Assembly (NCBI GenBank): GCA_963801355.1
Contig: CAWDEM010000004.1
Location: forward strand, 1,280,001 to 1,344,000
Length of the DNA: 64,000 nt
Source: Ignavibacteriota bacterium
Lineage (GTDB): Bacteria; Bacteroidota; Ignavibacteria; UBA10030; UBA6906
Reading direction: 5' to 3'
In this document: positions 50,941 to 53,822 of the stretch, one piece after another
Layout of the letters: every line of letters begins with the position of its first letter
How positions within the stretch are numbered: position 1 is the stretch's first letter
Program-made: the position numbers and the translations under genes
Notes under the pieces: model-generated
Seen by the model: the letters and a program-made list of their open reading frames with translations, nothing else
Database searches by the model: none
What the model was told of the DNA's origin: nothing

Positions 50941-51528
50941 CTATTTCTTCCGTGTCGTCTTCTTTGCCGGTTTTTTCGCCTTGGGCGGCTTCGCCTCTTT
51001 CGGTGGGGGTGTTTCCTTCTTTGTGACGAGCACCTTCCCGAGTTCTGCCTTCAATTTTTCGTAAGAGGCAAAGCGCTCGGTGAAGGCGATCTTCCCGTCT
51101 GAGCGGAGGACGATGATTCTCGGGAGCTTGACGATTTCGTAACTGGAAATGACGTCCGAATCCCGTCCGTACAGCACGGTATAGGGAAGCTTAAAGCTCT
51201 GTGCGTCGGCCTCCACACGACCGCGCATGTCGATCGGGTTGATCGAAAGAATCGAGACGTTTTTGTATTCACTCCAGATCTTTTTGAGAGGCGGAAACTC
51301 CGCCTGGCATTCCCTTCACTTCGACTTCCAGAAATGAAGAATCACTACGCTCTTGCCCGCGTAACTCTGCAGCGTGACGTTCTTGCCCGTTCCCACTGCC
51401 GGCAGGCTGAAGGCCGGCGCTTTGACGCCCGGTGCCAATCCTTCCCCGGCAAAGAGCATGTGTGCGCAGATCGTGAATACGGTAATGGCAAGTATGGTTG
51501 CTGAGCGTCTCATAGATTCCCGGGTCAT
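50941..51528 (-). CDS. TlpA/AhpC-TSA-like thioredoxin-fold selenoprotein (UxxC), exported; 195 aa, Sec at TGA 51316-51318
   Basis: ORFs 51316..51528 and 50941..51228 are in frame: ...VILHFWKSK-TGA-RECQAEFPPLKKIWSEYKNVSILSINPIDMRG... U aligns with the first Cys of WCxxC. Alternative start 51513. Confidence 0.88.
51289..51305 (-). promoter_or_regulatory. SECIS-like hairpin AGGCGGA-GTT-TCCGCCT
   Basis: 7-bp stem starting 10 nt after the UGA; G-first apical loop. Confidence 0.7.
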
Positions 51529-53822
51529 TTGAGGAGGACCATGCGTTGTGCAAGCATCGTTGTTCCACTGGAGAAGCGGCAGATATATACCCCGGAGCTC
51601 AGCCCCGATGCATCGAACCGGAACCTGTGGTACCCGGCAGACAGTACCTCGTTCGCCAGAGAGGTGATCTCCCGGCCGAGAGCATCAAAGATTGTCAAAC
51701 GGCATAGTGTTTGTACCGGCACGCCGATCTCAATGGTTGTCGTGGGGTTGAAAGGATTCGGATAGTTCTGACGCATGACAAATGTCTCCGGCAGACCTTC
51801 TGCGCGGTCCCGCACGGCGGCAGAACCCGAGAGGTTCAAGCGGTACACACCGCTTCCCTCCGTGCCCGCGTAGAGACGCCTGTTCGTCCGGTCGTACGCC
51901 AGACATGTCGCCCGCACATTGCCGAGGCCGTTGGAAAAGTTGTTCCAGTTCTTCCCCCTGTCTGTGCTCCGCCACACACCACTTGCTGCCCCGGCATAGT
52001 AGATCCCGCTGCTGTCGGGATTGCAGAGCAGCGTGTATGCGTACATATAGCCGGCCGGCACAGTCCAGCTTGAACCGGCGTCGGTGCTTGTATACACGCC
52101 ATTGTTTGTCGTTGCCGCAAGCACGTTTACATTGAAGGGATCGATGACGATTTTCGTGATTGATTCATACTGCTTGCCGAAGGTACTGCTCCCGATCTGA
52201 TTCCACGTGCTTCCGGCATTGGTTGACTTGTATATCCTGCTGTAGGTTGGCCACGTGCTGCCGGAGGCATACACTCCTCCACCGGCATACATGATATTTG
52301 TATTGCTGGCTTGAATAGCCAGGGTCTGCACCTCACCCCCGGCGGTGTCCAAAGCGATGCGCGTCCAGTGTGTTCCGTCGTCTGTCGATTGGTAGACAGC
52401 CATATGGGATGGCTCGGTCGTGCTTGCGGGATTGAGCTTTCCACTGCCACCCTGGTACAATACTGACCCCAGAGCTACGACATAACCGTTATCCATGGAA
52501 TCGTCGAGAGTTATCCAAGTGGACCCGCCACTTGTGCTCCTGAGGAGCGCCGATGTGCCTCACCCACCGCCTTCAAAGGCGTACAGACGCTCCGGGTTGA
52601 CGGGAGAGATGAAGACGTCTGTGACGTTTTCGCATGAATAGAAATCCGGCAGTCTGCTCCACGTTACCGTGGATTGGGTAGCTCCGCTGGTTTTGAAGAC
52701 TCCGCTGTAATTGATCCCTGCGTACATGATCGTGGGTGACGACGGAGCGCACACAAGAGCGGTGACCATAGTGCCATTCAATCCCGTGCTCGTCTGCCTC
52801 CATGATGCACCGGCATTGGATGATCGGAACACTCCTGTTCTGTTGCCGATGAACACGCACGCAGGGGTCGATCCTTCAACGACCAATGGGTCCACGCCGC
52901 TGCCGACAATGCCGCTACTGGAGGTAGTGTCCCAGGTGGCCCCGCCGTCGGTGCTCTTATAGACGCCATAGCTGTACGTCGAGGCGAACATGACGTCCGT
53001 ATTTGGCAGGTAAAATGCAAGCTTCTCGGGCGCCGGGACGTACACTCCAGTCCACGAACTGCCGCCGTTGCTGCTCCTGTAGATTCCCGCTCCGGAGGCG
53101 ACGAAGATCTTTCCTCCGCCGCCCGGGTCGACAAGGATGTCATTCACCATGCCCGGTAGTGTTCCCGTGATGTCACCGAAGACCGAACCGCCGTCTGTAC
53201 TCTTGAAAATCCGGCCATAGATATACGAACCAATAACAACATATCCCCCTGCATAAACGTGTTGGGTGTTCGTTGGATCAACCGCGACAGCGTATCCGTA
53301 GCCGGTTCCGCTCGCAAGCGTGCGTACGGTCCAGTCCGTTCCGCTGTTCGTCGTCCGAAAGTAGGCAAAGGACGATATGGACCCGTCGTAGAAGTAGCCG
53401 GACAGATGGAATGTGGACGGGCTCGCTGGATCCCGCGCCAGATCCTGCGCATAGCAGTTGGTGGGAAGGTTTATCGAGGTCCACGTCCCTCCGCCGTCGG
53501 TGCTGGAGAAGAGAATGGAGTAGGCAACACCATAGACACGTGATGGATTGGAGGGATCCACTTCGAGCATTTGAGGTGTTGAAGGAATGGTCGCTGTGGC
53601 GAACCAATGTTCGCCGTGATCCGTTGTCTTCCACCCGTTCCCCGGATAACTCTGTGTTGCAGCATATAATATACTGGTGTTTGAACGTGACTGCGCGAGT
53701 GCAGTTATGTATCCTCCTTCAGGGCCGACGGATTCCCATCCGGGGGTCTGTCCCGCCATCTCTGGAGGACCCAGCATGACAGGTATCGTCAGACACACCA
53801 GAAACAGCAAATGAGTTTTCAT
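51525..53822 (-). CDS. T9SS-secreted Asp-box beta-propeller protein, candidate selenoprotein; 765 aa, TGA at 52560-52562 (codon 421)
   Basis: ORF 52560..53822 (signal peptide) and ORF 51525..52496 (CTD) join in frame through ...LYAFEGGG-TGA-GTSALLRSTSGGSTWITLDDS-MDNGY..., restoring an intact Asp-box blade. Confidence 0.78.
52517..52548 (-). promoter_or_regulatory. Candidate SECIS hairpins (GCTCC-TCA-GGAGC; AAGTGG-CGGGT-CCACTT)
   Basis: Two short stems starting 11 and 26 nt after the UGA; less canonical than the others. Confidence 0.4.

Follow-up and report, generated by a model that had tools for sequence, protein, structure and literature searches.

A probable selenoprotein family of type IX-targeted BNR/Asp-box propellers with an in-frame UGA inside a propeller blade

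We analysed a window of 64,000 nucleotides from an Ignavibacteriota bacterium (GCA_963801355.1, contig CAWDEM010000004.1, positions 1,280,001 to 1,344,000 of the forward strand), and we describe here a propeller gene interrupted by a UGA codon. Two open reading frames (ORFs) lie on the minus strand, 52560..53822 (420 aa) and 51525..52496 (323 aa), in the same frame and with only the TGA at 52560-52562 between them. Reading through this TGA adds 21 residues (GTSALLRSTSGGSTWITLDDS) and gives a single product of 765 aa (P0001), with Cys397 in the context FYSCENV and position 421, encoded by the UGA, in EGGG-U-GTSALLRSTSGGSTW. The gene itself also ends in a TGA (51525-51527), and this terminator overlaps the start codon (ATG) of the gene that follows. 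An earlier reading of this DNA made without database searches (the sequence-only reading) had proposed this arrangement, and translation bears it out. The comparisons presented below argue that 51525-53822 is very probably one gene whose internal UGA is decoded as selenocysteine (Sec, U); that it also stands for a conserved family of such genes is held with nearly the same confidence. The product carries the sorting domain of cargo of the type IX secretion system (T9SS). The features of the gene are the following.

51525..53822, minus strand: candidate read-through selenoprotein gene (P0001), 765 aa, with signal peptide, tandem BNR/Asp-box beta-propellers and T9SS C-terminal domain
53751..53822, minus strand: predicted N-terminal signal peptide of about 24 residues (MKTHLLFLVCLTIPVMLGPPEMAG), read by eye from the sequence, boundary approximate
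52632..52634, minus strand: TGC codon of Cys397, the conserved partner, 24 residues before Sec (alignment)
52560..52562, minus strand: UGA codon very probably read as Sec (U421), in the loop EGGG-U-G (conservation of the TGA)
51540..51764, minus strand: T9SS type A C-terminal sorting domain, residues 687-761 (PF18962, TIGR04183)

To collect homologs, we scanned metagenome contigs for a pair of conserved peptides (LP[DQ]FYxC being one) and obtained 80 loci. An in-frame TGA was present at the same column in 46 distinct homologous sites (40 fetched loci plus the window, identical DNA collapsed), an arrangement far beyond what chance would produce, and in the fetched loci the Sec position was never occupied by TAA, TAG or a Cys codon. 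These sites fall into two types, a type A site (n=38) reading E-G-x-G-U-G-x-x-E-L-[YF]-x-S-T-D-G-G and a type B site (n=8) reading L-A-G-G-U-G-x-D-D-V-Y-R-S-V-D-G-G. The Cys-to-Sec spacing is 21-25 residues across all 46 sites, and the flanks are G-U-G in 45 of them. A second Cys follows the first after four residues (CxxxC) in 23 of the 46, and a Cys lies within the Asp-box (DGC) in 7. The identical duplicates L094, L120, L142 and L134 were collapsed, and L101:6507, which has one extra codon, was left out of alignment A3. The sequence-only reading had called for a tabulation of TGA and Cys in homologs. We made one on blades picked solely by their phmmer score against residues 330-480, with position 421 entered as X. 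In this alignment, the column holds an in-frame TGA in 42 of 51 rows, with the frame continuing through the rest of the blade, and a Cys stands at the Cys397 column in 42/42 of these U-bearing rows and in 0/9 of the rows without U, indicating that the TGA and the Cys are kept together. The remaining nine rows are generic BNR blades that have neither the Cys nor the Gly-rich insertion.

Variant tandem paralogs were also seen by eye at L096:7325-9646 (+) and L118:2532-4706 (+). Their motifs are QDG-U-C-DAKLF, which lacks the upstream Cys and has a Cys directly after Sec, and GSG-U-N-HAQLF. Since the motif search missed these G-U-C and G-U-N paralogs, the 46 sites are a lower bound, and the Cys placed beside Sec in the QDG-U-C paralog is what would be expected if Sec requires a partner thiol. 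Tandem pairs of Sec-propellers occur as well in L101, L102, L103, L106 and L127.

Protein databases hold the family in pieces. Three database homologs of 421-425 aa, with 57, 39 and 32% identity to the N-terminal ORF, end in ...EGGG or ...AGG; they stop exactly where the first ORF of the window ends, and Cys397 is invariant among them. Among the best 150 of 1.84 billion protein representatives, 15 correspond to the N-terminal half and stop at query residue 419 or 420, one of them being 94% identical to the window protein, and 5 are C-terminal pieces beginning at query residues 427-443. This search of 1.84 billion representatives gave no full-length record with more than 35% identity. The sequence-only reading had stated that homologs consistently present as two separate genes would indicate a natural split; paired entries of 420 aa and 320 aa do exist, but they are gene-caller truncations at the TGA. 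The reading frames of both halves are intact and conserved in homologs, and the TGA is kept from 94% down to about 27% identity, with exactly one internal TGA per gene. TGA also serves as terminator in 10 homologous genes, in the window propeller gene and in the redoxin gene upstream of it, indicating that TGA is not reassigned in these organisms. In database entries, the halves often bear the name 'photosystem II stability/assembly factor-like uncharacterized protein' (P0008, P0042, P0089, P0124, P0125, P0144, P0149 and others).

The RNA downstream of the UGA was studied on 37 type A sites in an alignment anchored on codons. The element is strongly conserved at the nucleotide level, including at synonymous positions, and contains two helices that we propose to be a selenocysteine insertion sequence (SECIS).

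52536..52548, minus strand: putative SECIS helix 1, 5 bp, GCUCC-UCA-GGAGC, RNA positions 15-27 after the U of UGA
52516..52534, minus strand: putative SECIS helix 2, 7 bp, CAAGUGG-CGGGU-CCACUUG, positions 29-47, overlapping the Asp-box codons T-S-G-G-S-T-W

RNAalifold independently predicts both helices. Helix 1 is nearly invariant in the 37 sequences, with 94.1% of cells paired. Helix 2, which across type A comprises 7-8 bp closing a GG(U/G) loop, shows compensatory changes at four pairs (34 cells), and 93.8% of its cells are paired versus 35-47% when the partner is slid by 1-3 columns. None of 500 shuffles matched the covariation score, the percentage paired or the count of double-changed cells observed for helix 2, and shuffle measures that count pairs or pair types were unexceptional (404 and 496 of 500). 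The amino acids covary so as to keep the pairing, namely D..V (GAC/GUC), S..T (AGU/ACU) and T..S (ACU/AGU). As a control, the same 8-pair scheme was scored on every Asp-box of these genes: 7-8 of the 8 pairs form in 34/44 Asp-boxes after the UGA versus 0/248 other Asp-boxes (mean of the others 3.7), and the Asp-boxes after the UGA that fall outside the 34 include the type B sites, whose hairpin is located elsewhere. In type B sites, the hairpin is invariant, has 8 bp and a GUCU loop, and begins 12 nt after the UGA (GUCUACAG-GUCU-CUGUAGAC). The two redoxin genes next to the propeller gene in the window have single hairpins starting 10-12 nt after their own UGA. The one in the UMDC redoxin gene (CAGACGG-AGUUG-CCGUCUG) is close to the type A helix 2 consensus, and the one in the URECQ redoxin gene has a GUU loop and begins 10 nt after the UGA.

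These observations suggest that UGA decoding is directed by a two-part SECIS inside the coding sequence, with helix 2 written over the Asp-box of the blade itself. Helix 2 would be the apical hairpin bound by SelB and helix 1 a spacer hairpin. With 13 of the 25 spacer nucleotides folded into helix 1, the effective distance between the UGA and helix 2 would shrink to about 12 nt, a spacing that matches the type B members and the neighbouring redoxin genes. Set beside the E. coli fdhF-type bacterial SECIS, type B is alike in its single hairpin, placed 12 nt after the UGA and capped by a G/U-containing tetraloop, and type A helix 2 is alike in its GG(U/G) loop. Type A differs in that its apical hairpin lies 25 nt after the UGA behind a conserved 13-nt spacer hairpin, and in that the element is superimposed on a protein repeat motif, the Asp-box. 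The sequence-only reading had called the hairpin of this gene the least canonical of the set and had proposed a covariation check across homologs; the description is fair, given the two parts, a conserved spacer hairpin and an apical hairpin that covaries at four pairs. A SECIS laid over an Asp-box forces coordinated amino-acid changes, and would thus offer a natural case of dual RNA/protein coding with compaction of the spacer, and a two-part element of this kind would be useful for building better SECIS search models.

Pfam finds Sortilin-Vps10/BNR repeats along the whole of P0001 (PF15902, 97.5 bits for a cut-off of 33; PF14870, 29.9 for a cut-off of 27). The N-terminus carries a hydrophobic leader (MKTHLLFLVCLTIPVML...), which forms a low-confidence helix at residues 5-16 in the model described below, and complete homologs have similar hydrophobic leaders. 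The sorting domain lies solely after the TGA (PF18962, 32.1 bits for a cut-off of 27; TIGR04183, 32.1 bits for a cut-off of 23). The signal peptide thus belongs to the first ORF only and the sorting domain to the second only, as the sequence-only reading had it. Of the T9SS components in the genome, PorU (980 bits) and SprA (847 bits) exceed their cut-offs and PorV falls just short (241 versus 250). From the leader, the sorting domain and this secretion system, P0001 is predicted to be a T9SS type A cargo. In its own genome, P0001 gives 226 matches, mostly through the C-terminal sorting domain.

An AlphaFold2 model was computed with Cys substituted for Sec and a 37-row alignment (predicted local distance difference test 88.3, predicted template-modelling score 0.81). 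It is all-beta with about 14 blades. The second propeller opens with the blade containing Sec, whose DSSP strands are 400-405, 413-417, 424-429 and 437-443, so that C397 lies immediately ahead of strand A and U421 within the B-C loop. This agrees with the placement of both residues in one blade that had been deduced from the sequence, and by the usual topology of such blades Cys397 and Sec421 are expected on the same blade face. The best Foldseek matches were xyloglucanases of glycoside hydrolase family 74 (GH74; 18 chains, E ~1e-26, template-modelling score 0.58-0.62), with a weaker match to the T9SS component PorZ, and GH74 was also at the top of a profile search of the PDB (E ~1e-41). GH74 xyloglucanases and oligoxyloglucan cellobiohydrolases (PDB 5fkq, 5jwz, 6p2n, 2cn3, 1sqj) have the same tandem BNR/Asp-box propellers in a chain of about 730 residues, but their identity to P0001 is just 14-19%. 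GH74 enzymes are not known to be selenoproteins. No GH74-specific or glycoside-hydrolase model scored over threshold for P0001 (NF045728, 174.5 bits versus a cut-off of 175), and the family alignments A2 and A5 show no invariant acidic column; P0001 is therefore not filed as a GH74 enzyme. The profile alignments of P0001 to GH74 in the PDB are repeat-shifted and out of register, and the GH74 catalytic Asp pair is probably absent from the family.

The machinery for Sec synthesis and insertion is encoded close to the propeller gene.

60667..60765, minus strand: tRNA-Sec, anticodon UCA (ARAGORN)
60826..61923, minus strand: selD, itself a Sec form (...LLSYAACAG-U-AGKISP..., TGA 61840-61842), start approximate (TIGR00476, 301 bits)

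The selD gene directly adjoins tRNA-Sec, and selB and selA lie just past the end of the window (G000:C4:1344017-1347278; SelB 359.5 bits for a cut-off of 242, SelA 584.4 bits for a cut-off of 268). Thus, tRNA-Sec, SelD, SelB and SelA are found within about 15 kb, and the window contains at least four Sec genes. In two metagenome loci, L133:7690-11031 (+) and L127:9250-10674 (+), selA directly follows the Sec-propeller gene or genes, and in L133 selB is present too. Both belong to a distant subfamily with DUF1559/N-methyl neighbours. Conservation of the TGA and of Cys397, the covarying hairpin and this machinery together support the earlier proposal of a selenoprotein family of T9SS-targeted Asp-box propellers.

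The propeller gene is the third of four same-strand genes, in the order 369-aa protein, UxxC lipoprotein redoxin, propeller, UREC redoxin.

54664..55773, minus strand: first gene of the cluster, 369-aa protein ending ...GAVYAF, no Pfam or NCBIfam family
53863..54651, minus strand: upstream lipoprotein redoxin, candidate selenoprotein P0003, Sec151 (TGA 54199-54201) in FFEHT-U-MDC
50941..51528, minus strand: downstream AhpC/TSA-redoxin, candidate selenoprotein P0002, predicted periplasmic, Sec71 (TGA 51316-51318) in HFWKSK-U-REC(Q)

Both redoxins match PF00578 (60 and 54.5 bits) and PF08534, with UxxC at the position of CxxC. In P0002, the UREC motif is invariant in 6/6 orthologs, and the UREC redoxin adjoins the propeller in L093/L094, L095, L099, L100 and L012. 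P0003 has the lipobox AVKGC and, at its N-terminus, an additional beta-rich domain (about 110 residues) that is assigned to no family; its orthologs (ULTC, UQTC, ULDC, ULAC, ULSC, UATC) stand beside the propeller in L093/L094, L095, L097-L100, L110 and L012. The 369-aa protein has Atlas feature matches at 0.94 to DUF3570, BBP2_2, SlipAM and TonB-receptor-like clusters. A putative outer-membrane beta-barrel is a lead only, and its gene is kept upstream of the redoxin in L095, L098, L099, L100, L110, L012 and partly in L093. The cluster as such is found in at least six independent contigs (L093/L094, L095 with both redoxins upstream, L097-L100, L110 and a frameshifted L012). In the more distant subfamilies, no redoxins were found next to the propeller; the neighbours seen there are T9SS proteins, a TonB-dependent receptor-like barrel, DUF1559/N-methyl proteins and selA/selB.

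Full-length relatives without Sec were also compared. Thirteen collinear non-Sec homologs, with 27-33% identity to P0001, were examined. P0220 has a Cys at both 397 and 421, P0170 a Cys at 421 only, P0155 keeps Cys397 with a Ser near 421, P0147 has Asp and Leu, and most of the thirteen also lack Cys397. A quick, not fully searched, midpoint-rooted tree was built from 24 Sec and 13 non-Sec rows. The scatter of non-Sec forms among Sec forms in this tree implies that the Cys/Sec pair is dispensable for the fold and was lost repeatedly, and the pair thus seems to behave as a unit added to or lost from a stable scaffold. Variable non-Cys residues at 421 had been named beforehand as a sign of a nonsense mutation or a natural split; Leu, Ser, Gly or a deletion are indeed found there, and they occur in these distant homologs, mostly together with the loss of Cys397, so that the resemblance to that outcome is superficial. 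A scan of genome contigs with N-terminal patterns returned mostly generic BNR proteins and one Sec form, L021 (titled candidate division WOR-3). In the same family of genomes as the window, one genome holds a copy of the cluster (L012, G007:C15, 1387-3770) whose propeller gene is frameshifted at several points, including the Sec codon; with this genome 61% complete and in about 40 contigs, an indel-rich assembly is as likely an explanation as a pseudogene. Taken as a whole, the family appears to be a sizeable group of environmental proteins that share the signature Cys...(21-25 residues)...G-U-G.

Several results weigh against a conserved selenoprotein family with a common redox function, or against parts of it. 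Concerning the RNA, helix 1 has zero double changes, and its pairing is therefore backed by conservation only; the single-sequence folding energy of the window element is unremarkable (z = -0.63), and since such energies are not significant for any of the three elements of the window, comparative evidence alone counts; a search of 50800-54800 against Rfam (E <= 10) gave no match. As for the residues, homologs with Cys in place of Sec number just 1-2, the others having Leu, Ser, Gly, other residues or a gap at 421, and the non-Sec forms are scattered across all three main clades of the quick tree. With respect to distribution, the gene was not found in 4/4 same-genus genomes, the frameshifted L012 is the one copy among 40 relatives, and no Sec copy was found in 400 further genomes of the phylum searched with that query, which, with 9 candidates scored per genome, is weak evidence of rarity. 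Redoxin neighbours are seen in 7/41 family sources (6 loci and the window), all in the clade of the window and its sister clade, and the other 34 sources showed no such redoxin near the propeller, a weak match in L112 aside; the link to redoxins is thus clade-specific. Finally, some family members have another C-terminal domain or none, and T9SS export, together with any selenium-dependent secretion, is therefore not universal in the family.

Other explanations of the TGA itself fit these data poorly. If the TGA were a true stop and the 323-aa ORF a separate gene starting at the ATG at 52496, the listing of the two halves as separate proteins by gene callers in many assemblies would be accounted for. 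However, in all 46 sites the 21 codons lying between the TGA and that ATG stay in frame and encode a conserved half-blade, TAA or TAG never replaces the TGA, a split would cut the blade between strands B and C and leave a second half without signal peptide and a first half without sorting domain, and a covarying hairpin follows the TGA; we consider a natural split very improbable. More improbable still is a pseudogene, a recent nonsense mutation or an assembly error. The broken L012 copy is the one observation in its favour, whereas the TGA is conserved among homologs that have diverged down to about 27% identity, both halves retain intact frames and conserved sequence, and the genome of the window is 100% complete in 8 contigs. 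The TGA could instead be read as Gly, Trp or Cys through an altered code or near-cognate read-through, and a Gly would look natural inside the glycine run EGGG-U-G. Against this, TGA terminates the propeller gene, its neighbour in the window and 10 homologous genes, each gene has exactly one internal TGA, a structured RNA element follows the codon, and the full Sec machinery lies near the window gene, with selA beside the L133 and L127 genes and selB in L133. A standard amino acid at this position is as improbable as a split, and Sec decoding of a single gene is the reading that we retain.

What the Sec residue does is a separate matter, on which we are much less confident. Cys397 and Sec421 may act as a redox-active thiol/selenol pair cycling through a selenenylsulfide. 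This is the mechanism that we judge most likely, at about even chances, and the selenenylsulfide suggested by the sequence-only reading gains from co-conservation of the two residues and from blade topology, with less support than Sec decoding itself has. Its main rival accepts Sec and takes the Cys/Sec pair for a ligand site for a metal or chalcogen (Cu, Hg, persulfide or selenide) and not a redox couple; the flanking TlpA-like redoxins would then keep the ligands reduced for loading. TlpA reduces Cu-site cysteines. The CxxxC found in half of the sites and the Asp-box Cys found in seven could place up to four chalcogen ligands near one loop, and the glycine-rich G-U-G flanks would suit a flexible binding loop. 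On the other hand, no metal-binding family or motif matched P0001 in Pfam or NCBIfam, the conserved cluster showed no gene for a metal transporter or chaperone, and the window protein has one Cys and the Sec only. We regard a ligand site as rather unlikely, and continue with the redox pair.

In the clade of the window, the two presumably co-transcribed periplasmic UxxC redoxins, one a lipoprotein and the other soluble, could keep the Cys-Sec pair reduced or return it to that state, and this reduction would occur while the folded cargo is in the periplasm. That the neighbouring redoxins are the reductants of the pair is a tentative proposal, somewhat below an even chance. The earlier idea that the pair is serviced by the flanking TlpA-type proteins accordingly holds as far as synteny goes, and that synteny is conserved in the clade of the window only. 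An outer-membrane barrel may be the product of the first gene of the cluster. When selenium is absent, translation would be expected to end once the first propeller is made, yielding a product that lacks the sorting domain. All these elements can be joined in one scheme, in which the four-gene cluster would form a selenium-based redox relay across the cell envelope that reduces a double propeller displayed by the T9SS. The surface selenenylsulfide would then act on an extracellular substrate bound in a GH74-like cleft, the UGA placed before the sorting domain would be a checkpoint restricting export to the selenium-loaded protein, and the RNA signal would reshape the protein repeat, with the D..V, S..T and T..S codon pairs chosen for base pairing. 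This joint scheme, with its extracellular selenoenzyme and its export checkpoint, is doubtful as a whole. Were it true, an extracellular selenoenzyme would for the first time be known on a propeller scaffold.

Thioredoxin-like folds with UxxC or CxxU predominate among the catalogued prokaryotic selenoproteins. Table 1 of a 2026 review (PMC13188914) counts 119 prokaryotic selenoprotein families and subfamilies, and has no BNR, Sortilin, propeller or GH74 entry in the part available to us. The words 'propeller', 'BNR', 'sortilin', 'photosystem' and 'secret' were likewise absent from that review and from the deep-Sep paper (PMC12013277). In NCBIfam release 20, no selenoprotein model matches P0001 at E <= 0.01. 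Full-text literature searches returned no paper joining selenoprotein with BNR or selenocysteine with Asp-box, and for selenoprotein with beta-propeller gave only papers on animal SelP receptors. Selenocysteine with type IX secretion gave one genome paper, in whose available text 'selenocysteine' occurs once and whose title and abstract contain neither term. Selenoprotein with Ignavibacteria gave three papers, whose titles and abstract openings point to unrelated subjects. For selenocysteine with GH74, the terms stand in unrelated sections of PMC4807772, as far as its text was accessible, and the planctomycete candidates of its S9 Table are outside this comparison. The family is thus probably undescribed as a selenoprotein family, and supplementary candidate tables could list it as 'hypothetical'.

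Known systems offer partial parallels. The Prx-like, redoxin and TlpA-type UxxC selenoproteins that appear in the available part of Table 1 of PMC13188914 likewise carry out extracytoplasmic thiol/selenol chemistry, and the two neighbours of the propeller belong among them. A thioredoxin fold is lacking in the propeller, as is any UxxC or CxxU motif, and with 24 residues between them its Cys and Sec would come together only in the folded protein. The three-selenoprotein Tso operon and the SAO system, as described in the accessible portion of the same review, also have several co-located selenoprotein genes that presumably serve one pathway, and here three lie in a row. The component families differ, and no Tso or Sao model of NCBIfam matches the three window proteins. 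Envelope selenoproteins in that part of Table 1 (FCYXU-type TonB-dependent receptor, MtrB/PioB-like GSU2204 family, ExtKL cytochrome) show that Sec proteins can reach the outer membrane or the cell surface, but none of those listed there is a beta-propeller or a T9SS cargo.

What would set this family apart is the presence of Sec on a large GH74-like tandem propeller, with a partner Cys distant in sequence and type IX export. Its context is distinct as well, a three-selenoprotein operon in one clade and a gene beside selA, once with selB too, in another lineage. If the Cys-Sec pair is catalytic, it raises the question of which extracellular redox chemistry needs selenium. For databases, the consequence is more direct: annotation pipelines split the family, so that the entries of roughly 420 and 320 aa would be the halves of one selenoprotein, a systematic annotation error that affects dozens of entries.

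Other genes were seen in this part of the window. Between the cluster and tRNA-Sec/selD lie two more proteins with T9SS tails, at 56231-58384 (+) and 58397-60478 (+), one of which is of BNR/Sortilin type without Sec. Between selD and selB, a gene at 62713-63996 (-) encodes a 2-hydroxyglutaryl-CoA dehydratase D-component family protein (PF06050, 327 bits).

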